NCBI GenBank assembly: GCA_017499595.2
Contig: CM039003.1
Coordinates: 248,001 to 312,000 of the forward strand
Direction of reading: 5' to 3'
Source: Psilocybe cubensis
Taxonomy: Eukaryota
Length of the DNA stretch: 64,000 bases
Below are positions 5,315-63,845 of this stretch, piece by piece. The notes under the pieces are model-generated. The model was given only the letters and a program-made list of their open reading frames with translations, searched no databases and was not told the origin of the DNA. Position numbers and translations under genes: made by a program. How positions within the stretch are numbered: the first letter of the stretch is position 1; each line of letters opens with the position of its first letter.

Positions 5315-6577
5315 ATGTCGGAAATCAAAGGAAGGTTGTCATCGTTGGTGATAGTGCTTGCAGGAAGGTATGGTTGGCTTTTGACTAGCTCAGAGAACGT
5401 CAGTTTGCATGCTGATCATCGTCGCCCGTCTAGACTTGTCTGTTGATCGTGTTCTCCAAAGGCACATTCCCAGAGGTACGTACATTGTCATCCGCCGGCC
5501 AGCCAGCCGAGGTGTGGGGCTTGCTGCTCCTCATTGCACCGTCTTGTGGGGTGTTTAGGCAGCTCCAGCGAATCCCTGGCGGCTTCGTCCGAGGTGTGGA
5601 AGGCTGATATTGGCGTTCAACTCTAGGTCTATGTGCCCACCGTGTTCGAGAACTACGTTGCCGATGTCGAGGTCGATGGCAAGCACGTGGAGCTTGCTCT
5701 ATGGGATACGGCCGGCCAGGAAGACTACGATCGTCTACGCCCTCTCAGTTATCCTGATTCGCATGTCATCCTCATCTGCTTCGCCGTCGACTCCCCCCGA
5801 TTCGCTTGATAACGTCCAGGAGAAGGTGTGTCTTGCCTTTCTGTCATTCCCCCTGCCTACATTTTTTTTGGGGATAACATCGGATACGGCAATTTGCTAA
5901 TGTCGTTGTTTTGTGGTTCCCTGCTTTTTAGTGGATTTCCGAAGTTATGCATTTCTGTGCCGGCCTGCCTATCATTCTTGTCGGCTGCAAAAAGGATCTC
6001 AGACGTGACCCCCCGTGTGATTGAGGAGCTTAGGAAGACGAGCCAGCGACCCGTAACCCCCGAAGAGGTGCGTTTTTTCTTGTTTTTTTCTTTTTCCTAC
6101 ATCACATTTCTTGTTTTCGTACGACTTTGGTGTGATGAGGGGGCGAGGTATGTACACGCCCCCGACCCTTATCTGAGCGCCATTTTTTGTGACATTTTTT
6201 GCGCTTCGTTCGAATCTGAATAACGTCATTCTTTTTTTGATGTCCTGTTTTATCACCCTTGCCTCGTTCCCCGCTTCTCTTATCCACATTGTGATCCCCG
6301 TCGCCGCCAACATTCTGTGTCTCAATGTCACCGTTTTTTCATTATTTTTTTTCCGTGCATCATTCTTTACACTCTTCCTCTTTTGTTGATTCCAACTTGT
6401 CACTAACCGTCATGTTTCTAGGGTATGGCAGTCGCCCAGAAGATCGGGGCAAAGCACTACCTCGAGTGCTCCGCCAAGTCGGGTGAAGGCGTCCGCGAAG
6501 TCTTCCAGTACGCCACCCGCGCCGCACTGCTCAGCAGAGGAAAGGGCAAGAAGAGCCACCATTGCATCGTGTTGTAG
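5315..6577 (+). pseudogene. rho1: Rho1 copy 1, frameshifted in exon 1
   Basis: atcaaaggaaggttgtc vs intact atcagaaggaagcttgtc (1-nt deletion). P-loop reads GDSACRK instead of GDGACGK. Exon 2 and exon 5 encode the intact peptide. The extra C in poly-C runs of exons 3 and 4 may be homopolymer errors. Confidence 0.9.
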
Positions 6578-7606
6578 ATGGCGTAGCTTATCCCTTTTAC
6601 CATTTTTTTTTCTTTCCGTCTTCATTCTTTCTTCCTTTCTTCCTTTTTTTGCTTTTTTCTTCCTTGACGACTCTCTTTCACTCTTCTTTCCGAGATCCTT
6701 GGATGCTTGAATTGGGGTGGGTGAAGATGCAGGGAGGAAAACGGGAGGTGGAGCGAGGGAGGGGTGGGGTGAGGTCAGGTAGGGAGGAACTTCAACAAGG
6801 ATAGGGAGGGGCTTGAATATCATTTATACTCGCACCTCGCCACCTTCTCTTTCACCTTGTTCCGGTTGGTTGTGGATAATGAACATGTGTTAATGCCGGT
6901 GGAATGCTCTTCGGTTTCTTTTTTTTTTCTCTTACCTAGTCTTTTTCACTTGATACCGCTTCTTTCTTGATTTTGATTGATGATCCACTTTTGACTCTTC
7001 TTCTCAAATATACTGCTGCTGCTGCACCTCCTGACTGCGACGAGTTGGCTATCTGTTTGTCTCTCCTTGAGCTTCTGTTGCTTTGGCTAAGCCCCTATGG
7101 ATTCCGAGCGTGTATTGCAATTTGAACAAAGTTGAAGTCTAATTGTTTTATATACGTTGTGCTGCCAGATATACATCGCTCGCTGTTGTGATGTATTTTA
7201 CGAGAAGATACTAGCTTTATATGGCATTAGATACCTTATTGAGACAACCCTGAGCAAATGAGATAGAAGTTTTTTGAATTTTCGAGTCGTGTTCTGGTAT
7301 CGTACAAGCAGAGGTTAGCCCCGCCCGAAGGCCAGCAGGGTCCGCCTCTGCTCTATCTACCTATCTAGTACGTACCTGGTCCGAATAAAGTCGGATAGAA
7401 CCGCTCGAGGTGCATCCAGAGTTTTCACAAGTCCGAAAATCGAACAATCGGTTGCGTGAAGTCTACCGAGTAAGTACATACCCGCTCTTGACACCGCCTC
7501 AGAACTCATTCGGCGTCGCCTACAAGCTGTCACACGACCCTTGAGCAGGTGAGTACTATATAAATGTTAAGTGCCAGTTCATAAAGTCTACCAATCAAAG
7601 TACACA

Positions 7607-8500
7607 CCTTGTTTGCCGGACGTCCAGAAATCGAAAAAAAGTCCGGGAAAGTCCAGATACATGCTCGACGTCATCTACTAGATGCAGATGGTGAGTACTA
7701 TATAGATATTAAGTGCGGGTACATACCTTGTTCGCCGGACATCCAGAAATCAAATAAAAACTGTGCAGAAGTCAAATACATGCCCGACGATGTAACCACC
7801 TCAACACCGCTCGCCGGATGCAATAACAACTGCAAGAGGGTTATGTGAACTTCAACAATCAAAGTGAAAAACTCAGTCAACACACCAGGCAGCCAACCCT
7901 CGCTCGCCGGAACTCCAAAAATCGAAAAAAATGTGCAACGACATTCCACGGCACTGGTAAGCTGTTGTTCATTAATTTGACGCCGCTCGCCGGATGTCCA
8001 AAAATCGAAAATAGTGCGAGGCGTTAACGGGACTTCAAACGTCTGTTGAGAAAAGCTCAGTCAGTACTCGGGTCTGCAAACTATGTAACACACCTTGTTG
8101 TGCAACAACCCTCGCTCGCCGGAACTCCAAAAAACGAATAAAAAGTGCAAAGGCGGGTACTGTGTAGATGGTAAGCTGTGGCTCAACAAACTCTAGCAAA
8201 TAAAGCACGTACCTCACTCGCCGGACATCCAAAAATCAAAAAATAACTCCGTGGCATGTCCAAACGTCGACTCCGTCTATGGAAGACAACTCAAGCCAAC
8301 GACTAGATGTGACACGTACTGGTTTCATGGCACGGCGGCAGATGAGAGCTGTGTAAAGAGATCAGTGATGGCCCATTAAGTGTACTAGGTAACATACCTT
8401 GCTCGCCGGACGTCGAAAAATCGAATAAAACTTGCGGCTCCATAGGTAGACACTGTCGATAGAATACAGGTTCGCGGGAACTCCAAAAATCGAATAAAAA
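7607..8500 (+). repeat. Array of about 9 copies of a ~28-nt motif CTCGCCGGA(ac/ca/cg/tg)TCCAAAAATCGAA with irregular spacers (also ~14298-15180, 24115-24997, 33932-34814, 44343-45225, 55400-56293)
   Basis: Motif instances near 7607, 7726, 7808, 7898, 7984, 8110, 8213, 8397, 8471. Confidence 0.88.
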
Positions 8501-9331: not shown

Positions 9332-9431
9332 NNNNNNNNNNNNNNNNNNNNNNNNNNNNNNNNNNNNNNNNNNNNNNNNNNNNNNNNNNNNNNNNNNNNN
9401 NNNNNNNNNNNNNNNNNNNNNNNNNNNNNNN
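9332..9431. other. Assembly gap (100 N, true size unknown)
   Basis: Run of N. Confidence 1.
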
Positions 9432-10266
9432 AACTGATGGCGAAAGTGATGTGCCATCAGCACAAATGGTTTCAATAATAGTCACCATTTCACGGTTCCC
9501 ATTTTCAACTTGTTGTACATTTTTCTGTGTTTTGTCAACAATTGCAGAAACAGCTTTTCCAACGCCAAGTTGTATTCCTTTTTCATCTGAGTTATAGATG
9601 TTGCTTGGTATGATATCATATTCCTAAATCAAGGAGATCTTTGAATTATGTCATATCTAGGGATGATATTTTTACATGCCTCGATTAGATCTTTGATCAT
9701 CACAAAAAACTCTCCAACAACTGTCGGATTCAAAGAGCGGGCCCGACATTCCTCAAGTGCAGAGGTTTTTTTGATTTTAAGATCAGTATGTCGTTCCAAA
9801 AACTTCCGGGGCCAGTTGATACCAATTTTCTGTTGTGATATTTCCTAAAAAATAGTACAGTATAAGTAACAGATTACCAATCACAGCACATACAATATAA
9901 CAAAATAGCACTTACTGAAGCATATTCCCGAAGCATGTCCTGAGTTACAGGAAACCCCCGTCGTCCTAATGTCTTTGCCCAATCAACTAGAATACTTTCT
10001 TCGGCATCTGAAAGTGCACGTTCGCCTGCATGTGCATCACGTTTGGTTTTGACTCCATTTAGCCGATTAGTCAACATTCCACGCTTGACACTGTAAATGC
10101 GACAGGCCTCCCGGATTGACAGTGTGTGCTGACCATTAGACTTTAAAGGTGAGGACATAATGGCCTGAATAGCTTCTTGAATCCGATTTTCTACAGTATT
10201 ATTGATAAGATCTGGGATGTCATCATTGGTAGAATCATGTGGAGAAACAGGAGAGGTTGTAGACAT
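9432..10266 (-). CDS. pogo/Fot1-type (Tc1-mariner superfamily) transposase, N-terminal part, cut by the gap
   Basis: Exon 10266-9916 has psq-like HTH (LSIREACRIYSV..GMLTNRLNG) and CENP-B-like HTH (LSDAEESILVDW...GFP). Exon 9844-9680 has IGINWPRKFLERH. Exon 9623-9432 has IYNSDEKG and NREMVTIIETICADG, typical of pogo DDE transposases. Spliced frame is open. Confidence 0.9.
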
Positions 10267-11135
10267 TCTGTGAGTAGTTGAGGAAGAAAAGCGAGTACAG
10301 CTGATTTCTAGTAGCTACTGACAGTGTATCCTACTTAGTTATTATATACTAGGGGTGGAATTAAAGGAGGACATACTTCGGACTTTTTATGGCATTTTGT
10401 ATGATTCTTCCACTTTTCCGAGTGCTATAACTTGGTGAGATGGTGGTTCTATCATTCAAAAATTGGTATTCAATGTCATAGGACATTGCAAAACACAAAC
10501 GCGCCTTCAATTTCTGCCGATCTTTAGCCGTTCTGAAGAACTTCTTTCAATGTTGAAGGTGTTCAAAATTAGCTACTTTTTACTGATTGTCATATTTCAA
10601 GCCTAAAAAAATCGCAAAAAATAAGAGAAGCGAGATTGTGGTACCTTGAAGTGTTATCACTGTAGATCAAGTCATTGTTTGCCGCAATTTTTCCTCATCT
10701 TCTCCGAATACTGCATACAATATGCATATGTTTAAATAGGCAAATCAGTCAAGTCATGCACTTAATTTCCAATTCTCGGAATATTCTCTGGAGATATCTA
10801 CTTGGAATCGAATGTATATTGTAGCCAGGGCTATATATGACCGACGTATACTGTTTTTGTGTCTGCTCAGCGCAGTTGTTGTGTTTGACCAAGTCGATAA
10901 TTATGGATTAGACGTGAGAATGATTAGCAAATCAATGGTGATGGTGAAATCTCACGGTGTATTGGCAAGATTGTGGCAGCAATACTTACTGCCTTGCTCT
11001 AAAAGTTTCTGATGTGGTGTAGAAGTACCACAAGAGCAGTAATACACAAAAAGATTGAAAGAAATTGCTATACAACTCGTCAAAATTGCTCAGTGGCCAT
11101 TTTCCGGGGTTGGCCGGTTTCAGGGTCGGGTACAG
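9432..11135 (-). mobile_element. pogo/Fot1-like DNA transposon, 5' half
   Basis: AT-rich tract containing the transposase. Candidate terminus on the minus strand TA|CTGTACCCGACCCTGAAACCGGCCAACCCCGGAAAATGGCCA has an internal imperfect direct repeat and flanking TA (11136-11137). Partner TIR is not visible. Confidence 0.65.
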
Positions 11136-11137
11136 TA

Positions 11138-11275
11138 GCACTGATGGCACTGAGTCAGCATTGACAGCCGAATGGGTAACGTCATGACCGCTATGAACAG
11201 TCACTAACCGTCTCTGACTTTGATGCTAACCGTAACTTTTATGACCGTCATCCATGGGCTGACCGCCCACCACTG
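11138..11275 (-). mobile_element. Possible hAT-like transposon terminus
   Basis: Minus strand starts CAGTGGTGGGCGGTCAG at 11275, followed by five short T(G/A)ACCG subterminal motifs. No partner end seen. Confidence 0.35.
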
Positions 11276-11981
11276 GGGTAGAGACGGTGCATCTGCTTGG
11301 ATTAAGCTAGAAAAGCGATGCTGGCTAAATATAACGCACTCCCCGTTCCCACATCTTCGCGGAGGGTAACGCAGACCGCGAATATAATAAATTAGAGTAG
11401 GTGCTGAGAGAGCAACGGGGTTATTTTTAAAAACGTCACCAGATAGGGTGCGTCATTATATTCTTTCGACGGTCTATCCGGGGTGGAAGCGCGCACATAG
11501 ATACCGAGGATGAGAAGCGCGCCTCACTGCCATGAAATTAGGAGAATACAGCCTCTACACTTGTAGCTGTTGTACAGCATGGCCATGGTAATAATTTTCG
11601 ACCACGTTCGTTCAACCTAGCAGTAAGATAATTGAAACTGTATAACAAACAACATTGTAAGATAAGGTGAGTAAAATCATGTCCAACGATGACTCGCATC
11701 TCTCTCCAATCGAGGTATTTATTACGACAGCGGCAAGGCACCGGAGAGGCGGTGTGATGCGCCAAGGCGGTGCGCCTGTTCACACGCACAGGGCAGGGGG
11801 CAGGGGAGTTACGTAATCCTGGCCCTCTTGTACGAATTCAAGTTCCGCTTAAAAACGTGGTACCATACGTTCGTCGACGCTTTGCTCACAACCATCCCCC
11901 GCTGCTCGTCGCCAGCCCCGCTTCCAGCACAACTACAAACCCACAAGTCGCCGCTGCCACCGCACAACCTCCCCGAGAACC

Positions 11982-13377
11982 ATGTCAGAAATCAGAAGGA
12001 AGCTTGTCATCGTTGGTGATGGTGCTTGCGGAAAGGTATGGTTGGCTTTTGACCAGCTTAGAGAACGTCAGCTTGCATGCTGATCATCGTCGCCCGTCTA
12101 GACTTGTCTGTTGATCGTGTTTTCCAAAGGCACATTCCCAGAGGTACGTACATTGTCAGCCGCCGGTCAGCCAGCCGAGGTGTGGGGCTTGCTGCTCCTT
12201 ATTGCACCGTCTTGGGGGGTGTTTAGACAGCTCCAGCGAATCCCTGGCGGCTTCGTCCGAGGTGTGGAAGGCTGATATTACTGGCGTTTAACTCTAGGTC
12301 TATGTGCCCACCGTGTTCGAGAACTACGTTGCCGATGTCGAGGTCGATGGCAAGCACGTGGAGCTTGCTCTATGGGATACGGCCGGCCAGGAAGACTACG
12401 ATCGTCTCCGCCCTCTCAGTTATCCTGATTCGCATGTCATCCTCATCTGCTTCGCCGTCGACTCCCCCGATTCGCTTGATAACGTCCAGGAGAAGGTGTG
12501 TCTTGCCTTTCTGTCATTCCCCCTGCCTACATTTTTTTGGGGATAACATCGGATACGGCAATTTGCTAATGTCGTTGTTTTGTGGTTCCCTGCTTTTTAG
12601 TGGATTTCCGAAGTTATGCATTTCTGTGCCGGCCTGCCTATCATTCTTGTCGGCTGCAAAAAGGATCTCAGACGTGACCCCCGTGTGATTGAGGAGCTTA
12701 GGAAGACGAGCCAGCGACCCGTAACCCCCGAAGAGGTGCGTTTTTCTTGTTTTTTCTTTTTCCTACATCACATTTCTTGTTTTCGTACGACTTGGTGTGA
12801 TGAGGGGCGAGATGTGTACACGCCCCGACCCCTTATCTGAGCGCCATTTTTTGTGACATTTTTGCGCTTCGTTCGAATCTGAATAACGGCATTCTTTTTT
12901 TGATGTCCTGTTTATCACCCTTGCCTCGTTCCCGCTTCTCTTATCCACATTGTGATCCCCGTCGCCACCGACATTGACGCCGTTTTTCAATCCAAATTTT
13001 ATTATTTTTCCATGCATCATGTTTTATTTATTCCAACTTGGTACTAACCATCGTCATCTTGTCATGCTTCTCTTATCCACATTGTGATCCCCCTTGCCAC
13101 CGACATTGACGCCGTTTTTCAATATAAATCTCATTATTTTTTTTATGCATCATTCTTTTATACTCCTTTTTTATTTATTCGAACTTGGTACTAACCCATC
13201 GTTATCTTGTAATGTTTCTAGGGTATGGCAGTCGCCCAGAAGATCGGGGCAAAGCACTACCTCGAGTGCTCCGCCAAGTCGGGTGAAGGCGTCCGCGAAG
13301 TCTTCCAGTACGCCACCCGCGCCGCACTGCTCAGCAGAGGAAAGGGCAAGAAGAGCCACCATTGCATCGTGTTGTAG
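11982..13377 (+). CDS. rho1: Rho1 small GTPase, intact, 5 exons, 194 aa
   Basis: Exons 11982-12035 ([18 protein letters not shown]), 12102-12143 ([14 protein letters not shown]), 12298-12495 ([10 protein letters not shown]...[19 protein letters not shown]...QEK), 12601-12735 (WISEV...VGCKKDLR...PEE), 13222-13377 ([19 protein letters not shown]...[10 protein letters not shown]). Four GT-AG phase-0 introns; G1-G5 motifs and CAAX box present. Confidence 0.97.
12782..12882 (+). ncRNA. Structured element in Rho1 intron 4; candidate box C/D snoRNA or K-turn hairpin
   Basis: GTGATGA (12797-12803), CTGA (12837-12840), GTGACA, CTGA (12879-12882). Stems ggtgt/gcgcc, gatgagggg/ccccttatc and ttcgtacga/tcgttcgaa. 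The host intron is unusually long (486 nt). Confidence 0.4.
12935..13221 (+). repeat. ~130-bp tandem duplication of the 3' part of Rho1 intron 4, including the TACTAAC branch site
   Basis: cttctcttatccacattgtgatcccc...ggtactaacc occurs twice in copies 2-5, once in copy 1, and partly duplicated in copies 6-7. Confidence 0.9.
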
Positions 13378-16300
13378 ATGGCCTAGCTTTTGTTTTATCC
13401 CTTATCCCTCTACCATTTTCTTTCTATTTTCTTTCTTCTTTCTTCCTTTTTTGCTTTTTTCTTCCTTGACGACTCTCTTTCACTCTTCTTTCCGAGATCC
13501 TTGGATGCTTGAATTGGGGTGGGTGAATGTGCAGGGAGGAAAATGGGAGGTGGAGCGAGGGAGGGGTGGGGTGAGGTCAGGTAGGGAGGAACTTCAACAA
13601 GGATAGGGAGGGTCTTGAATATCATTTATACTCGCACCTCGCACCTTCTCTTTCACCTTGTTCCGGTTGGTTGTGGATAATGAACATGTGTTAATGCCGG
13701 TGGAATGCTCTTCGGTTTCTTTTTTTTTTTTTTCTTACCTAGTCTTTTTCACTTGATACCGCTTCTTTCTTGATTTTGATTGATGATCCACTTTTGACTC
13801 TTCTTCTCAAATATACTGCTGCTGCTGCACCTCCTGACTGCGACGAGTTGGCTATCTGTTTGTCTCTCCTTGAGCTTCTGTTGCTTTGGCTAAGCCCCTA
13901 TGGATTCCGAGCGTGTATTGCAATTTGAACAATGTTTCTTTGGTTTATATACGTTGTGCTGCCAGATATACATGGCTCGCTGTTGTGATGTATTTTACGA
14001 GAAGATACTAGCTTTATATGGCATTAGATACCTTATTGAGACAACCCTGAGCAAATGAGATAGAAGTTTTTTGAATTTTCGAGTCGTGTTCTGGTATCGT
14101 ACAAGCAGAGGTTAGCCCCGCCCGAAGGCCAGCAGGGTCCGCCTCTGCTCTATCTACCTATCTAGTACGTACCTGTTTGAGTTTTCCACAAGTCCGAAAA
14201 TTGAACAGTCGGTTGTGGGAAGTCTACCGAGGTCTGTCGAAGAAATCTCAGCACTCGTTCGGCGTTGTCTACAACCTTGTTCTCCAAACTCATCCACTGG
14301 CTCGCCGGAATCGAATAAAAAGTGCGCGAAAGTTGAAATACATGCCGGCAGGTGAGTACTGTAATGGTTGTAAGTGCCGGTTCATCAAGTCCATGAATCA
14401 AAGTACATACCTTGTTTGCCGGACGTCCAGAAATCAAAAAAACCGCGTGAAAGTCGAAATACATGCCCGACAGTAACCACTCTCGACACCGCTCGCCGGA
14501 TGCAATAACAACTGCAAGAGGGTTAATGTGAACTTCAACAATCAACACACCTACCCATCACCAGGCAGCCAACCCTCGCTCGCCGGAACTCCAAAAATCG
14601 AAAAAAATGTGCAACGACATTCCACGGCACTGGTAAGCTGTTGTTCATTAATTTGACGCCGCTCGCCGGATGTCCAAAAATCGAAAATAGTGCGAGGCGT
14701 TAACGGGACTTCAAACGTCTGTTGAGAAAAGCTCAGTCAGTACTCGGGTCTGCAAACTATGTAACACACCTTGTTGTGCAACAACCCTCGCTCGCCGGAA
14801 CTCCAAAAATCGAATAAAAAGTGCAAAGGCGGGTACTGTGTAGATGGTAAGCTGTGGCTCAACAAACTCTAGCAAATAAAGCACAAACCTTGCTCGCCGG
14901 ACATCCAAAAATCAAAAAATAACTGCGCGGCATGTCCAAACATCGACTCCGTCTATGGAAGACAACTCAAGCCAACGACTAGATGTGACACGTACGTTGG
15001 TTTCATGGCACGGCGGCAGATGAGAGCTGTGTAAAGAGATAAGTGGTGGCCCATTAAGTGTACTAGGTAACACACCTTGCTCGCCGGACGTCGAAAAATC
15101 GAATAAAACTTGCGGCTCCATAGGTAGACACTGTCGATAGAATACAGGTTCGCGGGAACTCCAAAAATCGAATAAAAAATGCAGGAGCATAAGGACGGGA
15201 TACACGTTGGGGGTTCCCCAAAACCCACTTCACTTTATATCCTTTTCCCTAATGCTTCTAGTTTATTCAACGTCACGCAATATTTGCCCGTTGCCCCCGT
15301 TTCCAAACTAGAATGTGATGTCCAATATACCTGCAAGCTAAAATTGGCTCATGTAAATTTTCAGTTGCGGTCTCCTATCCCGGTCTTTTGATTCAACTCC
15401 GCTGCTTGTTTTCCCCAATCGCCTGTTCTTTCTCATTATCATAAATCATGCTCTCCCCGTCCTTTGTACATCAAATGCGAAATTTCAGTCTCGGTCTCCT
15501 GTTCCGGCCTTTTCAATCAAGTCCACTGCGTTCTTATTGTCATGAAGCTATGCTTCCCGTCCTTGGTGCATCAAACTCAGGTATGTATCATTTCCTATGC
15601 TTTACAATTCTTGTACCCACCACAATCCAAAAATTTTGACCCCTAGACTCAGTAGCTCGTCACTGCGCAGACTCGCGCATCGCGACCCAAGCAGCTAGTG
15701 CAAGGCAATCACCATTTAGCTGACGCGATGACCTCATGTCGTTCCAAACTACTGGACCTCAGTCAGATCGGGTATCCGACTCGCAAAATCTCTCCAGATC
15801 GTTGGTTTTCGAAGCTCAAATATTCGATTTTTAGGCTGCATTAACGTATTCAGGGTCGCATTCAGGAACACCTGAGCTGAGTAATGAGATTTCAGTAACC
15901 GACGACTCACTCAACGCCCACGAAATCCCAAGACAGCAATACGCTTCACATTCGCTTCCACGGGGTAGATTTTGTCACAGTCCCCTATTTTCTTTGACGA
16001 CCTATTAATTAATACATTAAATATGTTCACAAAACGCAGACAAGGTTCACACGTAGAGTCAAAGGGTGACAGAACCAACAGGCGGAGCTCAAATTAGGCG
16101 CCCGTGAGTCCGCACTTGCTTCTACCACGACGTCACCTATCCATATCACTCCCACATCCAGTCTGACGTACCGATAACCCCACACAATACCCCCAAAAAC
16201 GTCGTTCTCGCCCTCTGACTCTCAGGACAACGTTGCCACGTGGCGACTTGAACCAACATTCCCGTCTTCCGATTCATCGACGCAGGCCAGATTCGCGTAC

Positions 16301-19300
16301 AAGGCACTCGGAAATATCATTCGAATAGGCTGTAAGCTCGAGTTAGGCATGTTTGAAATGAGGTAATGAGAAATTCGACTCACCCCTCGAGCTAAAAATC
16401 GAGATTTACTCGCACCGATCTCTAGATACTTCTACGCAATGTAATTACTCCAACACAGTACAACACCCCAAAACAAACTAGCATATCTTTCCAACGTACG
16501 CGCAAGAGATAGGTGTGACGAGTCTGCGATTGAATTTTTGTATCTGCGCTGTGTCGGTGAGTTCTCCACAAAGAGCTGTTTTGTACACCCAAATGCGCCG
16601 CTGAATGAGGTCAAGATGTCAATCCTAGACCTCTGAATCATCCTCAGTCGACTATTAGAAGCTCCCGAAACATGGCTATGAGCGACATTGAAATCATTCG
16701 GGCACATACGGCACCTCCTTCTCCTCGCACCCCGATACGCCATCCACCTTCCACAATAACGCTGTTTCCAGCCCAACCTTGTTAATTAACCGTTCACGTA
16801 AGCTTCTAGTACCTTTCGTAACGATATTCAGCGGCGAACTGACCTTTGAATTGCGTTTGCAGCGGCCACGTAGACGTTGTCCCCGGGAAGCGCCTGGTAA
16901 GATCTTGCAATTCTACGCGTTTTCGAGAGGTTTTTGAGGCTAATACTGACTGGAACTGTGTTCTGAATAGGGGTTGGACGGTTTGCGATGCGAAGAGCAA
17001 CACAAAACGTTGGGAATGAACAAATACATCACGTTTGGTTCAATGTACACCAAACAGCGAATTTCGTTGTTTTCTTTGAACTACACATTTCAAACTGCTC
17101 ACAGATAGACATCCCAGCACTGCATAGCATCTCTCAATGTCCCTGCAAGCTCCCGCGATCACAGGGTAAGCAATCCAATTCAACGGAGATTGTTCTCCTC
17201 GCACCTTCCCTCGACGCGAAATTGCATGTACGTCGTTTTTCCGGCTTCCATTGGCCCCCTGTGAGTCATCTCGTAACGGTTATGTACGTGAATAATAGGC
17301 TGAAACGGTTGGAATTTTTGTGGAAGACGGAAATGCGGAGTGAATGAAAATATTGCGAATACGAGTGTTGGCGCATCCGGACCATGTCTGCGATGCGCGG
17401 TAGTTGTATAGCTACCTAGAGTGATATATCTATCTTATCTATCGTGTCTTATTCTGTTTTCATAATGTCTGGCTCGTCGAGTGCAATAAAATGAATACCT
17501 ACAAACACATCACGCCAAATCTAACAAACACAGCGATTCGCAACTCTCTCCAAATTCCCGTCGATTTAAAGTAATATACACACCTGGATATATTGTATAC
17601 TCTAACCCTGCACTACAGAAATCAATCAGCAAAAGTACAAACCATTGAATACCAATCGAACAACCAAATCCACAACATGACATGACACACCCTCGCCTCC
17701 CGCCCAAATTCACAATTACACACCCGTTCAAAACGCTAGAAACACCTGGCTAGTCTATTCGGCTCTCGGCTCGGGTCTGGTCCGATCAAGGGTCCTGTCA
17801 GGTATATTGAGAAGGCCTTCGTAGTTTACTGTACGTTGGTATGTGTGCTCCTTCAGTAGATATTGCGAATGGCGTTGTAATTGATGTACGTACGTTTAAT
17901 TGAGAGTAGGTGGAGATATTGGTATACCATTACATGCCTGCTTGACTTTGGAAAAGTGTGAGTTGAGACGGGGATGGTTGAAAAAGAAAATGTGAACACT
18001 CGAGGACTCCTGCAGAACGCGAATGCGTGAAAACAAGCAAAAAACACATTTCATTCACCATAACCATGTTACTACAAACATTAGAATAGTAAGTACCCCT
18101 AAGAATACACTACACCCAACTGTCCAAAGACCCTCGAACTCGATTTTCAAAAATGTATCACTCACCTCACCCGACCTTCCTCTCCTCCCGATCTTCCGCA
18201 CTAACGGGCTGAAAAACACCTCTGGATTGTTACCACTCGCCCCTGAAGCATCCGAAGTCGCCGAAGCCGTAATAATAATACCAAATTTCACAGAAAAAAT
18301 TGGCAACTTACGTTTTGTAATTTTGTTGAACGTTGCATGTGGACGTAGTTCTCCTTCAGTAGATATTGCGAATGCCGTTGTAGTTGTTGTACGTACGTTG
18401 AAATGAGAGAGAGTGGAGATATTGGCATACTGGTACATCCAGTGGTTGACTTTTGAGAGATGTGAGTTGAGATGATGGGTATTTGGAAATGTTACAGAGA
18501 GATATCTTCACCCGAACGTGAATGCTTGAAAAACACATAAAACACATTTCATTGGCAATCCTACTACTCACATTGTGCAGATGGTACATCTATAGGTATC
18601 CTACGACCCACCCAGCAATACTCGAACTCGATTTTCGAAATGTATGGCTCACCTCACATCACCCTCTCCCAACCTCCTTCTCCTCCCGATCTTCCGCACT
18701 AACGGGCTGAAAAAAACGTCTGGATTCCTACCACTCGTCCCTGAAGCTCCGAGGTCACCGCAGCCGTAATCCCAATACCAAAATATATCGCCAACTTACG
18801 TTCATTCCTTTCGTTTTGCTCGTTCGCCGGGCTTGATCCTCGTCGATTCACGCACAATTGTGCAATTGTACAACCCTAGAAGGATTGCGTGCGTTATCTG
18901 CTATGCATATGGAGCGACTCCTGAGCTTACCTGGCTGGTTACAGACTTTCAGACACCCAGACAACTCGTCGAAGACCCAATGATCCTCTTGACCCCGATA
19001 CGACCCTCCGCTTCCATTTCAAAAACAACGCAATTTCCGCTGCATTCGACGTATCCAGGGTGTTGTAAGCTAGTGTATATTGCCAACGTAATGCACTAGA
19101 GAGGTTCCGAAATTTTGTTTTCGAGGTTAGTTGCATTCGGAATTGAGAGATTGGAGATGGGTACGTACGCATTGTGCAGCAAAGAATGCAATCCGGAGCT
19201 TTCTACGTGTGTTCCAGTGTTGTTTTGGGAGACTCCTATTCACATTGAGGTGTGCTTCGATCGAAGGTCGAATGCTCGATAACTGAAAACACGATGAAAA

Positions 19301-19577
19301 GAGAGGGCGAATGCAAACATCTTGTGCACATTCAAGCCCGATTCGTGTCTCGCCGATTAGACCCAATAGCGGAGATCCCGACGCCTAGAACAAACGACAG
19401 CCTCGAAAGAATATATTGAACGAATCACGTACCCAGATTCAAAAGTAAAAAGCGAGATTTGAAGGGAATCGCAACCTATTCCGGATGTCGTCACAGGGAG
19501 GAAAACACGAAAATAACACACCCGGGCTAGCGCGACGGGTTCCGTGTGGATGTACGTACACGGGCGTGTCGCGCTAG

Positions 19578-21541: not shown

Positions 21542-21797
21542 CATCTCTCTTTACGCGACAGCGGCAAGGCAGCGGAGAGGCGGTGTGATGCGCCAAGGCG
21601 GTGCGCCTGTTTACACGCACAGGGCAGAGGCCGTTCGTAATCCTGGCATTCAAGTTCCGCTTTAAAACGGTGGTATCATACATTCGTTGACGGGGCCGCT
21701 TTGCTCACAACCATCCCCCCTGCTCGTCGCCAGCCCCGCTCCCCAGCATCTAATACATCTATTCACGCACGTCGCCGCACAACCGCCCCCGAGAACC

Positions 21798-23191
21798 ATG
21801 TCGGAAATCAAAGGAACCTTGTCATCGTTGGTGATGGTGCTTGCGGAAAGGTATGATCGGCTTTTGACCAGCTCAGAGAACGTCAGCTTGCATGCTGATC
21901 ATCGTCACCCGTCTAGACTTGCCTTTTGATTGTGTTATCCAAAGTCATATTCCCAGAGGTACGTGCATCGTTAGCCGCCGTTCAGCCAGCCGAGGTGTGC
22001 GGCTTGCTGCTCCTCATTGCACCGTCTTGTGGGGTGTTTAGGCAGCTCCAGCGAATCCCTGGCGGCTTCGTCCGAGGTGTGGAAGGCTGATATTGGCGTT
22101 CAACTCTAGGTCTATGTGCCCACCGTGTTCGAGAACTACGTTGCCGATGTCGAGGTCGATGGCAAGCACGTGGAGCTTGCTCTATGGGATACGGCCGGCC
22201 AGGAAGACTACGATCGTCTACGCCCTCTCAGTTATCCTGATTCGCATGTCATCCTCATCTGCTTCGCTGTCGACTCCCCCGATTCGCTTGATAACGTCCA
22301 GGAGAAGGTGTGTCTTGCCTTTCTGTCATTCCCCCTGCCTACATTTTTTTGGGGATAACATCGGATACGGCAATTTGCTAATGTCGTTGTTTTGTGGTTC
22401 CCTGCTTTTTAGTGGATTTCCGAAGTTATGCATTTCTGTGCCGGCCTGCCTATCATTCTTGTCGGCTGCAAAAAGGATCTCAGACGTGACCCCCGTGTGA
22501 TTGAGGAGCTTAGGAAGACGAGCCAGCGACCCGTAACCCCCGAAGAGGTGCGTTTTTCTTGTTTTTTCTTTTTCCTACATCACATTTCTTGTTTTCGTAC
22601 GACTTTGGTGTGATGAGGGGCGAGGTGTGTACACGCCCCGACCCCTTATCTGAGCGCCATTTTTGTGACATTTTTACGCTTCGTTCGAATCTGAACAACG
22701 TCATTCTTTTTTTGATGTCCTGTTTATCACCATTGCCTCGTTCCCGCTTTTCTTATCCACATTGTGATCCCCGTCGCCACCGACATTGACGCCGTTTTTC
22801 AATCCAAATTTTATTATTTTTCCATGCATCATGTTTTATTTATTCCAACTTGGTACTAACCATCGTCATCTTGTCATGCTTCTCTTATCCACATTGTGAT
22901 CCCCCTTGCCACCGACATTGACGCTGTTTTTCAATATAAATCTCATTATTATTATTTTATGCATCATTCTTTTATACTCCTCTTTTATTTATTCCAATCT
23001 GGTACTAACCCATCGTTATCTTGTAATGTTTCTAGGGTATGGCAGTCGCCCAGAAGATTGGGGCAAAGCACTACCTCGAGTGCTCCGCCAAGTCGGGTGA
23101 GGGCGTCCGCGAAGTCTTCCAGTACGCCACCCGCGCCGCACTGCTCAGCAGAGGAAAGGGCAAGAAGAGCCACCATTGCATCGTGTTGTAG
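21798..23191 (+). pseudogene. rho1: Rho1 copy 3, chimeric: degenerate exons 1-2, intact exons 3-5
   Basis: Same 1-nt deletion at codon 5. Exon 2 reads TCLLIVLSKVIFPE. Exons 3-5 encode the same peptide as the intact copy. Confidence 0.92.
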
Positions 23192-49400: not shown

Positions 49401-49622
49401 ATTAGACCCAACGGCGGAAATTCCGACTCCTAGCACAAACGACAGCCTCGAAAGAATATATTGAACGAATCACGTACCCAGATTCAAAAGCAAAAAGCGA
49501 GATTCGAAGGGAATCACAACCTATTCCGGATGTCGTCACAGGGAGGAAAACACGAAAATAACACACCCGGGCTAGCGCGACGGGTTCCGTGTGGATGTAC
49601 GTACACGGGCGTGTCGCGCTAG

Positions 49623-52600: not shown

Positions 52601-52785
52601 CTGTCGACGGTGTGGATGCGTCCCGCCGGCGGTGGTGAAAGATGTTGGAGGGACGCGTCAGGCCAACTGCTTGCTGTCGCGGAAAGGCATGGCTGGCGTG
52701 ATGGACATTGCTGCACCAGTCGGGATGGTTGTAAAAGTCGGGCATGATTGTGGAGCAGACCGGCGCGGGCAGCCGCGCTGGGGTT
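49623..52785 (+). ncRNA. Composite, longer intron-dense tract (two variants joined at 51549/51550)
   Basis: First part matches 3200-5130; second part matches 61029-62264. Confidence 0.5.
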
Positions 52786-53038
52786 CATGTCTCTCCAATC
52801 GAGGTATTTACGCGGAGAGGCGGTGTGATGCGCCAAGGCGGTGCGCCTGTTTACACGCACAGCGCAGAGGCCGTTCGTAATCCCTGGCATTCAAGTTCCG
52901 CTTTAAAACGGTGGTATCATACATTCGTTGACGGGGCCGCTTTGCTCACAACCATCCCCCCTGCTCGTCGCCAGCCCCGCTCCCCAGCATCTAATACATC
53001 TATTCACGCACGTCGCCGCACAACCGCCCCCGAGAACC

Positions 53039-54366
53039 ATGTCGGAAATCAAAGGAACCTTGTCATCGTTGGTGATGGTGCTTGCGGAAAGGTATGATCG
53101 GCTTTTGACCAGCTCAGAGAACGTCAGCTTGCATGCTGATCATCGTCACCCGTCTAGACTTGCCTTTTGATTGTGTTATCCAAAGTCATATTCCCAGAGG
53201 TACGTGCATCGTTAGCCGCCGTTCAGCCAGCCGAGGTGTGCGGCTTGCTGCTCCTCATTGCACCGTTATGGCGGTGTTTAGACAGCTCCAGCAAATACCT
53301 GGCGGCTTCGTTCGAGGTGTAGAAGGCTGATATTAGTGTTAAAGTGTAGGTCCATGTACCCATCGTGTTCCGGAACTACGTTGCCAATGTCGAGGTCAAT
53401 GGTAAGCACGTTGAGCTTCAATTGTAAGCACGTCGAGCTTCGATGGTAAGCATGTCGAGCTTCGTCTCCACCCTCTTAGTTATTATAATTCGCATGTCAT
53501 CCTCATCTGCTTTGCCGTCTACCCCTCTTAGTTATTATGATTCGCATGTCGTCCCCACCTGCTTCGCCGTCGACTCCCCGATTCCCTTTATAACATCCAA
53601 TAAAAGGTTTGTCTTGTCTTTTCTTCATTCCCTCTGCCTGTATAATATCAGACACCGCAATTTACTAACATTGTTGTTGTGTGGTTCCTCTCTTTTTAGT
53701 GCCATACCTATGCCTGCCTGCCTCTCATTCTCGTCGTCTGCAAAACAGATCTCAGACCTGACTCCCGTGTGATTGAGGTTCTTAGATAGACGAGCCGTAA
53801 CCCCCGAAGAGGTGCGTTTCTTTTTTCTACGTCACCTTTATTGTTTTTCGTACAACTTTGGTGTGTATGACACGCCCTGGGGCCTGGCCCCTTATCTGAG
53901 TGCCATTTTTGTGCTTCGTTCGAATCACCCACGCATTCTTTTTGATATCCTGTTTATTACCCTTGCCTCATTCCCGCTTCTCTTATCCACATCGTGATCC
54001 CCGTCGCCACCAACATTGACGCCGTATTTCAATCCAATTTTATTTTATTTTTTTTTTCATGCATCATGTTTTATTTATTCCAACTTGGTACTCGCCACCA
54101 ACATTGACGCCGTTTTTCAATACAAATTTCATTATTTTTTCCATGCATCATTCTTTTACACTCTTCCTCTTTTGTTGATTCCAACTTGTCACTAACCGTC
54201 ATGTTTCTAGGGTATGGCAGTCGCCCAGAAGATCGGGGCAAAGCACTACCTCGAGTGCTCCGCCAAGTCGGGTGAGGGCGTCCGCGAAGTCTTCCAGTAC
54301 GCCACCCGCGCCGCACTGCTCAGCAGAGGAAAGGGCAAGAAGAGCCACCATTGCATCGTGTTGTAG
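53039..54366 (+). pseudogene. rho1: Rho1 copy 6, exons 1-4 heavily degenerate, exon 5 intact
   Basis: Exon 1 frameshift. Exon 3 lacks the [12 protein letters not shown]-coding segment and has internal micro-duplications. Exon 4 has deletions. Exon 5 is intact. Confidence 0.95.
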
Positions 54367-57300
54367 ATGGCGTAGCTTATCCCTTTTACCATTTTTTTTT
54401 CTTTCCATCTTCATTCTTCCTTCCTTTCTTCCTTTTTTTGCTTTTTTCTTCCTTGACGACTCTCTTTCACTCTTCTTTCCGAGTTCCTTGCTGGATGGTT
54501 GAATTGAGGGTGGGTGAAGGTGCAGGGAGGAAAATGGGAGGTGGAGCGAGGGAGGGGTGGGGTGAGGTCAGGTAGGGAGGAACTTCAACAAGGATAGGGA
54601 GGGGCTTGAATATCATTTATACTCGCACCTCGCCACCTTCTCTTTCACCTTGTTCCGGTTGGTTGTGGATAATGAACATGTGTTAATGCCGGTGGAATGC
54701 TCTTCGGTTTCTTTTTTTTTTCTCTTACCTAGTCTTTTTCACTTGATACCGCTTCTTTCTTGATTTTGATTGATGATCCACTTTTGACTCTTCTTCTCAA
54801 ATATACTGCTGCTGCTGCACCTCCTGACTGCGACGAGTTGGCTATCTGTTTGTCTCTCCTTGAGCTTCTGTTGCTTTGGCTAAGCCCCTATGGATTCCGA
54901 GCGTGTATTGCAATTTGAACAAAGTTGAAGTCTAATTGTTTTATATACGTTGTGCTGCCAGATATACATCGCTCGCTGTTGTGATGTATTTTACGAGAAG
55001 ATACTAGCTTTATATGGCATTAGATACCTTATTGAGACAACCCTGAGCAAATGAGATAGAAGTTTTTTGAATTTTCGAGTCGTGTTCTGGTATCGTACAA
55101 GCAGAGGTTAGCCCCGCCCGAAGGCCAGCAGGGTCCGCCTCTGCTCTATCTACCTATCTAGTACGTACCTGGTCCGAATAAAGTCGGATAGAACCGCTCG
55201 AGGTGCATCCAGAGTTTTCACAAGTCCGAAAATCGAACAATCGGTTGCGTGAAGTCTACCGAGTAAGTACATACCCGCTCTTGACACCGCCTCAGAACTC
55301 ATTCGGCGTCGCCTACAAGCTGTCACACGACCCTTGAGCAGGTGAGTACTATATAAATGTTAAGTGCCAGTTCATAAAGTCTACCAATCAAAGTACACAC
55401 CTTGTTTGCCGGACGTCCAGAAATCGAAAAAAAGTCCGGGAAAGTCCAGATACATGCTCGACGTCATCTACTAGATGCAGATGGTGAGTACTATATAGAT
55501 ATTAAGTGCGGGTACATACCTTGTTCGCCGGACATCCAGAAATCAAATAAAAACTGTGCAGAAGTCAAATACATGCCCGACGATGTAACCACCTCAACAC
55601 CGCTCGCCGGATGCAATAACAACTGCAAGAGGGTTATGTGAACTTCAACAATCAAAGTGAAAAACTCAGTCAACACACCAGGCAGCCAACCCTCGCTCGC
55701 CGGAACTCCAAAAATCGAAAAAAATGTGCAACGACATTCCACGGCACTGGTAAGCTGTTGTTCATTAATTTGACGCCGCTCGCCGGATGTCCAAAAATCG
55801 AAAATAGTGCGAGGCGTTAACGGGACTTCAAACGTCTGTTGAGAAAAGCTCAGTCAGTACTCGGGTCTGCAAACTATGTAACACACCTTGTTGTGCAACA
55901 ACCCTCGCTCGCCGGAACTCCAAAAAACGAATAAAAAGTGCAAAGGCGGGTACTGTGTAGATGGTAAGCTGTGGCTCAACAAACTCTAGCAAATAAAGCA
56001 CGTACCTCACTCGCCGGACATCCAAAAATCAAAAAATAACTCCGTGGCATGTCCAAACGTCGACTCCGTCTATGGAAGACAACTCAAGCCAACGACTAGA
56101 TGTGACACGTACTGGTTTCATGGCACGGCGGCAGATGAGAGCTGTGTAAAGAGATCAGTGATGGCCCATTAAGTGTACTAGGTAACATACCTTGCTCGCC
56201 GGACGTCGAAAAATCGAATAAAACTTGCGGCTCCATAGGTAGACACTGTCGATAGAATACAGGTTCGCGGGAACTCCAAAAATCGAATAAAAAATGCAGG
56301 AGCATAAGGACGGGATACGTGTTGGGGGTTCCCCAAAACCCACTTCACTTTATATCCTTTTCCCTAATGCTTCTAGTTTATTCAACGTCACGCAATATTT
56401 GCCCGTTGCCCCCGTTTCCAAACTAGAATGTGATGTCCAATATACCTGCAAGCTAAAATTGGCTCATGTAAATTTTCAGTTGCGGTCTCCTATCCCGGTC
56501 TTTTGATTCAACTCCGCTGCTTGTTTTCCCCAATCGCCTGTTCTTTCTCATTATCATAAATCATGCTCTCCCCGTCCTTTGTACATCAAATGCGAAATTT
56601 CAGTCTCGGTCTCCTGTTCCGGCCTTTTCAATCAAGTCCACTGCGTTCTTATTGTCATGAAGCTATGCTTCCCGTCCTTGGTGCATCAAACTCAGGTATG
56701 TATCATTTCCTATGCTTTACAATTCTTGTACCCACCACAATCCAAAAATTTTGACCCCTAGACTCAGTAGCTCGTCACTGCGCAGACTCGCGCATCGCGA
56801 CCCAAGCAGCTAGTGCAAGGCAATCACCATTTAGCTGACGCGATGACCTCATGTCGTTCCAAACTACTGGACCTCAGTCAGATCGGGTATCCGACTCGCA
56901 AAATCTCTCCAGATCGTTGGTTTTCGAAGCTCAAATATTCGATTTTTAGGCTGCATTAACGTATTCAGGGTCGCATTCAGGAACACCTGAGCTGAGTAAT
57001 GAGATTTCAGTAACCGACGACTCACTCAACGCCCACGAAATCCCAAGACAGCAATACGCTTCACATTCGCTTCCACGGGGTAGATTTTGTCACAGTCCCC
57101 TATTTTCTTTGACGACCTATTAATTAATACATTAAATATGTTCACAAAACGCAGACAAGGTTCACACGTAGAGTCAAAGGGTGACAGAACCAACAGGCGG
57201 AGCTCAAATTAGGCGCCCGTGAGTCCGCACTTGCTTCTACCACGACGTCACCTATCCATATCACTCCCACATCCAGTCTGACGTACCGATAACCCCACAC

Positions 57301-60685: not shown

Positions 60686-62264
60686 TATAAAGGCAGGCGT
60701 GTGTTGGTGTGTTTTTCCTCATCCCCTCTTGGGGTTCTCGGCCTCGTCTCCTCCTCCTCTCCTCAAGGTAAGCGCGATTCTCCTTGAGCGCGTCGGTTGA
60801 ATGTTGAACATTGAACTCGCAGGTTCTGGTGCTGGGGCGCGTCGGGACGAATCCTGCTCGCTGGTGAGTGTTGCCACTGGCTTGTGTGCATTGCTAATGC
60901 TCTTGTTGCACATAGTGTACTCGTTGTGGCGGGTGTTGGTGTCTCCGTAAGTTGGGTTTTCTTTACCTCGACGCGTCGCAGGCTCTGTTGATGTATAATG
61001 ACACAGCGGACCTTGAAGTGGTCAACACGTCATGCGGCGGAGGTGCTGGACTGTGCTGTAGGTAGGCACGTTAACGTCGGTCACTGTGGGGAATGCACTG
61101 ACCGTGTCTTCTAGCAGCTCGCCATCATTGCCGCCCTTGTAAGTGGTAAGCATACCCTCGTAGCTCTTGAATGGCGCAGCTGATCCTGTGTTATTGCAGA
61201 CTGGATGGGCGGTGCTGAGCAAGGTAGGTGTTTTCGCCCACTTGAAGATAGTGTTGATGGACGTGGCAGGTGGCGTGGACGCGAGTCGGGGAGGGCTTGC
61301 AGGTGAGTGTTCCCACAGACTTGTGGTCATTCCTAATGCTTTGACAGCGTGCTCGTTGTTGCGGGTGCTGCCGTCTAGGTCAGTCGGCTTTCCTTTACCT
61401 CGTCGCGTCTGTTGACGTGGGATGAGACAGCGGACCTTGGAGATGCTGAACGTGTCATTCGGCGGAGGGGGACTGTCAGGGTCGCATCTGGATGTGCTGC
61501 AGGCAGGCAAGCAAGTCAATGTTGGTGAGTGTGGGGAATGTGCTGACCGTGTATTTGAGCAGCTCACCGTTGCCGCCTTGTAGACTTGTCGGACGAGCTA
61601 GATGGCGGGGAGCGAGGTAGGTGTCTCCACCTTTTTGAAGGACAATGCTGATATTCGACGTGTCTAGTGGTGTAGACGCGAGTCGGGGCCTGCTCGAGGG
61701 TGAGTGTTTCCCCTCGCTTGTGTGCATTGCTAATGCTTTGACAGTTTGCTCGTCGTTGCGGATGCTGGTGTCTAGGTGTGTCGCGTTTTCTTTACCTCGT
61801 CGCGTCGCAGAGCGTGTTGATGTAGGATGCGACAGCATATGTTGGTGATGCTCGACGCGTCATTCGGCGGAGGTGCTGGACATTTAGGTCAGTGAATGTT
61901 TTCTCTCTGCGTGAGTGTGCTCACCGTGTCCTGTACATGTATATAACCAGTCATTGAGATACTGACTCCCAAGGCGTCGGTGGCGCTGAGCTATGTTGCA
62001 GACAGAGGCGGCGGCGGCGGCGGCGGCGGTATGGATCTGGGAAGGACGTGTGGAATGAGGTGAAGAACGCGGCTCTGAACTGTCGACGGTGTGGATGCGT
62101 CCCGCCGGCGGTGGTGAAAGATGTTGGAGGGACGCGTCAGGCCAACTGCTTGCTGTCGCGGAAAGGCATGGCTGGCGTGATGGACATTGCTGCACCAGTC
62201 GGGATGGTTGTAAAAGTCGGGCATGATTGTGGAGCAGACCGGCGCGGGCAGCCGCGCTGGGGTT
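60686..62264 (+). ncRNA. Third, shorter variant of the intron-dense tract
   Basis: Same TATA and module motifs; lacks the block found at about 20810-21270. Confidence 0.5.
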
Positions 62265-62517
62265 CATGTCTCTCCAATCGAGGTATTTACGCGGAGAGGC
62301 GGTGTGATGCGCCAAGGCGGTGCGCCTGTTTACACGCACAGCGCAGAGGCCGTTCGTAATCCCTGGCATTCAAGTTCCGCTTTAAAACGGTGGTATCATA
62401 CATTCGTTGACGGGGCCGCTTTGCTCACAACCATCCCCCCTGCTCGTCGCCAGCCCCGCTCCCCAGCATCTAATACATCTATTCACGCACGTCGCCGCAC
62501 AACCGCCCCCGAGAACC

Positions 62518-63845
62518 ATGTCGGAAATCAAAGGAACCTTGTCATCGTTGGTGATGGTGCTTGCGGAAAGGTATGATCGGCTTTTGACCAGCTCAGAGAA
62601 CGTCAGCTTGCATGCTGATCATCGTCACCCGTCTAGACTTGCCTTTTGATTGTGTTATCCAAAGTCATATTCCCAGAGGTACGTGCATCGTTAGCCGCCG
62701 TTCAGCCAGCCGAGGTGTGCGGCTTGCTGCTCCTCATTGCACCGTTATGGCGGTGTTTAGACAGCTCCAGCAAATACCTGGCGGCTTCGTTCGAGGTGTA
62801 GAAGGCTGATATTAGTGTTAAAGTGTAGGTCCATGTACCCATCGTGTTCCGGAACTACGTTGCCAATGTCGAGGTCAATGGTAAGCACGTTGAGCTTCAA
62901 TTGTAAGCACGTCGAGCTTCGATGGTAAGCATGTCGAGCTTCGTCTCCACCCTCTTAGTTATTATAATTCGCATGTCATCCTCATCTGCTTTGCCGTCTA
63001 CCCCTCTTAGTTATTATGATTCGCATGTCGTCCCCACCTGCTTCGCCGTCGACTCCCCGATTCCCTTTATAACATCCAATAAAAGGTTTGTCTTGTCTTT
63101 TCTTCATTCCCTCTGCCTGTATAATATCAGACACCGCAATTTACTAACATTGTTGTTGTGTGGTTCCTCTCTTTTTAGTGCCATACCTATGCCTGCCTGC
63201 CTCTCATTCTCGTCGTCTGCAAAACAGATCTCAGACCTGACTCCCGTGTGATTGAGGTTCTTAGATAGACGAGCCGTAACCCCCGAAGAGGTGCGTTTCT
63301 TTTTTCTACGTCACCTTTATTGTTTTTCGTACAACTTTGGTGTGTATGACACGCCCTGGGGCCTGGCCCCTTATCTGAGTGCCATTTTTGTGCTTCGTTC
63401 GAATCACCCACGCATTCTTTTTGATATCCTGTTTATTACCCTTGCCTCATTCCCGCTTCTCTTATCCACATCGTGATCCCCGTCGCCACCAACATTGACG
63501 CCGTATTTCAATCCAATTTTATTTTATTTTTTTTTTCATGCATCATGTTTTATTTATTCCAACTTGGTACTCGCCACCAACATTGACGCCGTTTTTCAAT
63601 ACAAATTTCATTATTTTTTCCATGCATCATTCTTTTACACTCTTCCTCTTTTGTTGATTCCAACTTGTCACTAACCGTCATGTTTCTAGGGTATGGCAGT
63701 CGCCCAGAAGATCGGGGCAAAGCACTACCTCGAGTGCTCCGCCAAGTCGGGTGAGGGCGTCCGCGAAGTCTTCCAGTACGCCACCCGCGCCGCACTGCTC
63801 AGCAGAGGAAAGGGCAAGAAGAGCCACCATTGCATCGTGTTGTAG
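62518..63845 (+). pseudogene. rho1: Rho1 copy 7 (same as copy 6)
   Basis: Offset 9479 from copy 6, with the same lesions. Confidence 0.95.

Follow-up and report, generated by a model that had tools for sequence, protein, structure and literature searches.

How did a tandem array with one working copy and a series of disabled copies form around a gene that is essential for viability in yeast and other fungi, and does its shape record selection on the size of the array? The question is raised by a stretch of 64,000 nucleotides of Psilocybe cubensis (contig CM039003.1, positions 248,001 to 312,000 of the forward strand; hereafter, the window), in which the gene of the small GTPase Rho1 is repeated. 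A first, sequence-only reading of the window proposed an essential-gene ratchet: crossovers between the intact copy and a pseudogene would give a viable expansion or a lethal contraction, so that selection would bias the array towards growth and leave behind chimeras with a dead 5' part and a live 3' part. The analysis presented here favours, as a probable explanation, a strain-variable tandem array of gene and pseudogenes at Rho1 shaped by ordinary concerted evolution (unequal exchange or gene conversion), with no selection on array size needed.

Self-BLAST of the window showed head-to-tail repeats across the whole 64 kb, with shifts of ~9.5–10.4 kb and a unit size of ~9.5–11 kb. Each repeat unit comprises ~285 bp before the start codon, the complete gene including introns, and a non-coding spacer of ~8 kb. 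Seven copies of Rho1, all on the plus strand, were found in the window by blastn and tblastn; this number is a lower bound, as the array continues past both window ends. Tandem Repeats Finder, whose period limit of 500 bp is exceeded by the unit, detected no array. The units are represented by the following features, the coordinates of copies being given from ATG to stop:

1–5076, plus strand: partial unit 0, spacer tail, 99.8% identical to 46429–51549; the array continues off the left window end
5315–6577, plus strand: copy 1, pseudogene with the codon-5 1-bp deletion and P-loop changes of its own
11982–13377, plus strand: copy 2, intact Rho1 of 194 amino acids
13651–21527, plus strand: spacer of unit 2, equal to the spacer of unit 3
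21798–23191, plus strand: copy 3, mosaic pseudogene with frameshifted exon 1
31615–33008, plus strand: copy 4, pseudogene with 0 differences from copy 3 in the gene
42026–43419, plus strand: copy 5, pseudogene with 0 differences from copy 3 in the gene
53039–54366, plus strand: copy 6, pseudogene with wrecked exons 3 and 4
62518–63845, plus strand: copy 7, pseudogene equal to copy 6; the array continues off the right window end

Only one of the seven copies in the window, copy 2, is intact. Its five exons (11982–12035, 12102–12143, 12298–12495, 12601–12735 and 13222–13377) are separated by GT-AG introns and form an uninterrupted frame of 194 codons. Exons 3 and 5 match the Pfam family Ras (PF00071), a Gymnopilus model aligns with all 194 amino acids from end to end, showing 4 mismatches, and the exon 5 peptide is 100% identical to two proteins named Psilocybe cubensis rho1 (P0001 and P0002), the next matches belonging to other Agaricales. 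Judged by these alignments, copy 2 is predicted to encode a full-length Rho1/RhoA small GTPase conserved against its orthologues. No 194-amino acid model identical to copy 2 was present among the best 120 of 163 protein matches.

An identical 1-bp deletion in codon 5 is present in all six disabled copies (aligned for copies 1, 3 and 6; copies 4 and 5 equal copy 3, and copy 7 equals copy 6), and the window holds four distinct gene sequences, namely, one intact and three pseudogene types. Because the deletion is common to all six, they descend from a single founder pseudogene. In copies 3–5 the defects are the frameshift in exon 1 and three missense changes in exon 2, while exons 3–5 are 100% identical to those of copy 2 in amino acids. 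Copy 1 has the frameshift, changed P-loop codons, a deletion in intron 4 and two 1-bp insertions, one in exon 3 and one in exon 4, that turn C5 into C6 runs; its extra indels lie in homopolymers (C5-to-C6 and T7-to-T8 runs), and the C-run insertions could be homopolymer errors. In copies 6 and 7, exons 3 and 4 are destroyed, with a 59-bp insertion in exon 3. The exon 5 protein is 100% identical in all seven copies.

Several other explanations of the lesions were rejected. All four introns with AG/GT borders are kept in every copy type, which excludes a processed (retro-)pseudogene. Repeat-induced point mutation as the cause of decay was dismissed in view of a balanced spectrum; the middle of copy 6 differs from copy 2 by 80 transitions and 58 transversions, with 52 C>T and G>A changes versus 28 T>C and A>G changes. 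Rescue of copies 3–5 by an upstream start in the frame restored by the deletion was also rejected, as the 70 open codons contain no ATG; copies 6 and 7 do have an in-frame upstream ATG, but their exons 3 and 4 are wrecked.

The two public proteins named rho1 are gene-finder models placed on disabled copies. P0001 lies on a copy resembling copy 1 and jumps the frame at both C insertions, the same frame jumps that copy 1 requires, and it may stem from the window's own assembly; P0002 lies on a variant resembling copy 6 and begins at an upstream ATG.

The switch to copy-2-like sequence lies, in copy 2 coordinates, at 12002, after exon 1, in copy 1; between 12200 and 12211, in intron 2, in copies 3–5; and for copies 6 and 7 at 13211/13212, late in intron 4 and 10 nt ahead of exon 5. 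The site patterns thus agree with the switch points of the sequence-only reading in all these copies, and support its view of the disabled copies as recombinants of a pseudogene lineage with functional-type sequence. When the informative sites of copies 3 and 1 were shuffled, none of 10,000 shuffles had as few runs as observed, so the mosaics are not due to chance.

This description of the copies holds at the level of coding exons, but is incomplete at nucleotide level. Copy 3 is of copy 6 type up to 22015, of functional type at 22026–23025 and again of copy 6 type at 23101–23429, after which the sequence is of unit 2 type; the second stretch of copy 6 type corresponds to 13287–13613 in copy 2 coordinates and includes 40 informative events. 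Copy 1 is not live on its 3' side, given the two 1-bp insertions in exons 3 and 4; it is of copy 2 type from 5334 to ~6330 and of copy 6 type from 6338 on; in copy 2 coordinates it returns to copy 6 type at ~13044, except for single sites and a four-site patch of copy 2 type at 13497–13516. The disabled copies are thus three-part sandwiches rather than two-part chimeras.

The proposed polarity is likewise only partly retained. No copy with an intact exon 1 and decayed later exons was found in the window, but the 5' part of copy 6 is less diverged than its middle. Copies 2 and 6 differ by 23 of 266 positions (8.6%) from exon 1 to intron 2, by 138 of 825 positions (16.7%) plus 208 indel columns in the middle, and by 1 of 171 positions (0.6%) in the exon 5 region at 13212–13382; the copy-2-like part of copy 6 starts at 54201. 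The 5' part and the exon 5 region both differ from the middle (p = 0.001 and p = 2e-11, respectively). Exon 5 stands out as an island of identity: 1 of 171 positions differs there, compared with 47 of 225 across flanks of 120 bp (p = 8e-12). This pattern of divergence suggests that the pseudogene lineage once had its 5' part refreshed and its middle left as it was, a polarity opposite to the rule proposed earlier.

The comparison of units 2 and 3 argues against the present copy 2 as the source of the live parts. Their spacers (13651–21527) show 0 substitutions and 1 indel column in 7,870 bp, whereas the 'live' part of the gene (12201–13377) has 19 substitutions and 7 indel columns in 1,177 bp, and the start of the 3' untranslated region (UTR), at 13378–13650, has 21 substitutions and 18 indel columns in 273 bp. 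In the upstream 285 bp, copies 2 and 3 differ by 25 substitutions and 61 indel columns. Copies 3 and 6 are identical for 270 bp beyond the stop codon. Copy 3 is thus not the product of a single crossover between the present copy 2 and a pseudogene, because such an exchange would leave all sequence to the right of the breakpoint equally similar to unit 2. The identity of the spacers next to diverged genes suggests that, when units 2 and 3 were last homogenised, the tract ended on the left near 13650, within the 3' UTR, and left the gene untouched. The claim that the live parts derive from the intact copy in the window is contradicted by these numbers. In exons 3–5 all four differences between copies 2 and 3 are synonymous (~0.003 by chance), as expected if both parts came from working alleles.

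Growth of the array through exchanges with the intact copy is also at odds with the comparison of units. The genes of units 3, 4 and 5 are identical, and 51550–54521 equals 61029–64000, so that copies 6 and 7 agree over 2,972 bp. These identities show that whole units were duplicated. At least three duplications copied entire pseudogene units without copy 2, and the recent growth of the array took this form.

Sequencing data of other origin were compared with the window. Thirteen runs in five studies and two raw-read DNA runs were found, none of them listed as an RNA run, and the region 9432–14100 was compared in the raw DNA runs X14 and X15, in X10 (marked 'RNA?') and in the DNA contigs of X1. 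In the flank at 11304–11927 the summed depth was 24–32 in X14 and 18–40 in X15; over the gene it was 20–40 and 24–39, respectively, as in the flank, and it was not several-fold higher at exon 5 and the 3' UTR, unlike the expectation for seven copies. Reads with the codon-5 deletion numbered 0 of 29 in X14 and 0 of 25 in X15, and beyond 13956 the depth in both runs was 0. Consequently, X14 and X15 have one Rho1 and no pseudogene at a likeness of at least 88%, and the array spacer is absent next to the gene. The copy number of Rho1 varies between strains, from a single copy in X14 and X15 to at least seven in the window.

The single gene of X14 and X15 bears on the origin of copy 3. At 12507–13613, 18 fixed letter differences from copy 2 are listed, 17 of which have the letter of copy 3, 8 that of copy 6 and 6 that of copy 1; 6 of 7 indels also match copy 3. 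The live part of copy 3 is thus close not to the present copy 2 but to a functional allele in circulation as a single-copy gene, and the agreement at 17 of 18 letters points to another functional allele as its donor. The codon-5 deletion was found in the contigs of two other runs, with a depth of 79 of 124.7 (two contigs) in X1 and 58.6 of 192.6 in X10; depths of such Logan contigs are not taken as copy numbers. Contigs of X1 contain both forms of exon 1.

On its left, copy 2 is preceded by sequence that occurs nowhere else in the window (9432–11696), including a transposon fragment, a short high-copy repeat and a single-copy flank of ~420 bp. The features of this region are:

9332–9431, no strand: assembly gap of 100 N, separating contig A (units 0 and 1) from contig B (copy 2 onward)
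9432–10314, minus strand: fragment of a pogo/Tc5-like DNA transposon (HTH_psq, HTH_Tnp_Tc5) with broken frames, reaching the gap
11137–11277, no strand: short high-copy repeat, depth ~182–188 versus ~28 in the flanks (X14 and X15)
11278–11696, plus strand: upstream flank found in the window only at copy 2, with single-copy depth in X14 and X15
11697–11725, plus strand: left border of the repeat unit, ~285 bp before the ATG, where likeness to other units begins

The segment 11278–11696 is the native flank of Rho1; its presence in X14 and X15 identifies copy 2 as the positional counterpart of their single gene. Copy 2 is the leftmost unit on its contig. In the scaffold, however, the unit of copy 1 precedes copy 2 on the other side of the gap, a placement that rests on that join, so that copy 2 need not be the terminal unit of the array.

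The transposon fragment has a match to HTH_psq (E = 4.9e-05) and one to HTH_Tnp_Tc5 below the cut-off, and is split over three frames. In X14 and X15 it is represented by mixed variants at ~1.6x the single-copy depth, which indicates a dispersed repeat; this repeat is probably the cause of the assembly gap. The repeat at 11137–11277 has ~6-fold depth in X14 and X15, with many different loose ends at 11136–11139 and 11275–11277, and occurs also in X10, at a depth of 215.7; a miniature element and a solo terminal repeat are both possible identities.

The gap raises the possibility that part of the array is an artefact of assembly or haplotype: contig A (1–9331, with copy 1) would be misplaced or would represent another nucleus's version of 46429–57124, units 3–5 would be miscounted, and the frameshifts of copy 1 would be homopolymer errors. 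Besides the 100-N gap itself, the near-identity of contig A to 46429–51549 (99.8%) and to 54127–57124 (99.5%) and the position of the extra indels of copy 1 in C5-to-C6 and T7-to-T8 runs speak for it, as does the fact that the number of units in the window's own strain rests on the assembly and not on reads. The codon-5 deletion, however, is present in contigs of X1 and X10, and public P. cubensis models lie on a copy resembling copy 1 (P0001, with both frame shifts, although possibly from the same assembly) and on a variant resembling copy 6 (P0002). An artefact of this kind is considered unlikely.

The ratchet can be weighed against the same data. The underlying geometry, in which the expanded product of an unequal crossover retains the gene at the edge and acquires a chimera of opposite polarity, is textbook knowledge, and the three chimera types have the polarity that the ratchet predicts. 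Copy 2 has its native upstream flank and, within its contig, forms the left border of the array, and it is the single intact copy in the window, which also suits the ratchet; as assembled, however, another unit lies to its left. The sequence-only reading had itself noted that there are only three independent chimera types, and three of three alike has a probability of 0.125 if both polarities are equally likely.

The other observations are unfavourable to the ratchet. The live part of copy 3 differs from copy 2 beside an identical spacer and matches another functional allele; copies 1 and 3 revert to pseudogene type on their 3' side; pseudogene units were duplicated at least three times without copy 2; and strains with a single copy exist and are alive. 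If copy 2 exchanged with a copy of type 3 at a point 3' of exon 2, the resulting gene would still be intact, and contraction would therefore not be generally lethal. By our own arithmetic, with a 1.4-kb gene, a 9.8-kb unit and seven units, ~4% of exchange points would fall in the gene body of copy 2 and <2% would give a defective contraction, the latter figure being before any penalty for poor homology. Selection through lethal contractions is therefore regarded as very unlikely to have driven the array.

Under concerted evolution, which we prefer, a founder pseudogene with the codon-5 deletion would have given rise to all other disabled copies. The pseudogenes would have been overwritten patchwise by functional-type sequence through non-allelic gene conversion, unequal exchange or both, and units would have been multiplied whole by exchanges in the long, identical spacer. 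All disabled copies would be dead at the 5' end by definition, because the founding lesion lies at the extreme 5' end of the gene. We infer from the distribution of homology that the homogenising tracts were anchored on the 3' side and reached leftward to 13212, 12211 and 12002 in copy 2 coordinates: upstream of the ATG, identity is 70–85% with many indels, while near-identity extends through exon 5, the 3' UTR and the spacer. Tracts would be anchored 3' because homology is long and perfect on that side and poor on the 5' side.

Several points weigh against this explanation. The direction of transfer is not readable from one genome, the homology gradient is a suggested cause only, and the crossover geometry of the ratchet also predicts the three polar switch points, so that polarity does not discriminate between the two. 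The middle of copy 6 (53300–54200, also present in copy 7) has diverged by the 16.7% given above, yet X14 and X15 have no pseudogene; the age of copy 6 is hard to fit to a recent, strain-specific array, and an old polymorphism, introgression or fast decay would have to be assumed. Between 11300 and 12500, no fixed differences of X14 and X15 from copy 2 were found among the rows shown (40 of 110 letter differences and 12 of 24 indels), the coverage being limited to those rows. The number of units, at least seven, and the position of copy 1 depend on a gapped assembly.

Transcripts of the locus are represented by contigs of X10, in which exon joints 1–2, 2–3 and 3–4 are spliced at GT..AG borders, with loose ends at exons 4 and 5, and by a contig end with 27 A at 13829, a position without a run of A in the genome. 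The spliced joints and the poly(A) end show that X10 holds RNA. The corresponding features of the 3' UTR of copy 2 are:

13383–13450, plus strand: CT-rich start of the 3' UTR in the version of copy 2; the other six copies have a common alternative version
13829, plus strand: poly(A) addition site of Rho1 mRNA, seen in X10 as a loose end of 27 A

The main form in X10 is of copy 2 type in exon 5 and over the 150 nt with which the 3' UTR begins. Copy 2 is the gene whose transcript is spliced and polyadenylated. The rearranged CT-rich version, found only in copy 2 among the seven copies, also occurs in X1 contigs and in the main X10 transcript, and is therefore real. In X14 and X15, the depth drops over this segment and reads seem cut at 13417–13453, which suggests that these strains carry the other version of the 3' UTR start.

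Exon 1 of pseudogene type is present in X10 at the depth given above, and the unique flank has a depth of 0, which suggests that the disabled copies are transcribed. They might, then, be kept for a function: transcribed from the retained ~285-bp promoter, they would modulate Rho1 mRNA as a decoy, a source of small RNA or an antisense target, and this would be why exon 5 and the 3' UTR are held identical. If so, the array would regulate the dosage of cell-wall and polarity signalling in a strain-variable way. In a weaker variant of this reading, the one working copy would form a reflecting barrier, and the array could drift upward. Pseudogene-type exon 1 in a run with spliced and polyadenylated RNA, together with the exon 5 identity island between copies 2 and 6, is consistent with such a role. 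The single difference between these copies in exon 5, a synonymous one, would nevertheless be a better fit to recent conversion than to purifying selection over a long time. On its right, the island is bordered by a change specific to copy 2, copies 3 and 6 being identical for 270 bp past the stop, and strains without any pseudogene exist. Contigs, moreover, can neither show transcript levels nor exclude carry-over of DNA. A retained function of the disabled copies thus seems highly improbable.

Searches of the spacer showed no Rfam families and no tRNAs, and no Pfam families in any of the 10 open reading frames tried. The spacer contains internal tandem sub-repeats of ~430–500 bp with 68–74% identity, at 1462–2402, 17845–18782, 19748–20839 and homologous places. 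Unit 4 has an extra 592 bp at 37441–38032, absent from units 2, 3 and 5 (position 17804 in unit 2), and this segment is the sole difference between units 3 and 4. Units 5 and 6 have an extra end segment of ~1.2 kb (51550–52785 and 61029–62264) ahead of copies 6 and 7; the two segments match one another at 100% identity and are similar to the sub-repeats of the spacer (89% to 19911–20752).

In practical terms, two public Psilocybe cubensis models that carry the name rho1 or are grouped under it (P0001 and P0002) rest on disabled copies, and variant calling from short reads at Rho1 will mix the copies. More generally, the locus is a clean natural tandem array of gene and pseudogenes around an essential fungal GTPase, and strains with one copy and with many copies could be used for measuring the rates of exchange and conversion in a mushroom genome. 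No published account of the Rho1 array was found in a literature search, as judged by titles and abstracts.

The array shares traits with several known systems. In the human RCCX locus (CYP21A2/CYP21A1P), a working gene and its disabled counterpart occupy tandem modules whose number varies, and chimeras and patch-wise transfer occur between them. The medically relevant flow there is from pseudogene into gene; in the Rho1 array, by contrast, the visible flow would be of functional-type sequence into pseudogenes. Macrosatellites are tandem repeats at the kb scale with an embedded gene copy and variable copy number, and the Rho1 array resembles them in its ~10-kb units, near-identical neighbours and copy-number differences between individuals. 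Unlike macrosatellites, it has one unit with a working essential gene and decayed others, and is absent from some strains.

A likeness to the proposed ratchet is provided by the Lepore and anti-Lepore rearrangements of the beta-globin genes (HBD-HBB). In these, according to a published account (PMC4041002), misaligned tandem paralogues give a contracted chromosome with a fusion gene and an expanded one with the reciprocal fusion between the intact parents, and the products are retained asymmetrically, the deletion product being harmful. An asymmetric fate of crossover products is therefore not new, being already in print for globin genes (PMC4041002). As at Rho1, gene conversion can yield the same mosaics at an unchanged copy number. 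The Rho1 array differs from the globin case in its frameshifted pseudogene partner, its ~10-kb unit with a long non-coding spacer, its number of at least seven units and its three-part sandwiches.

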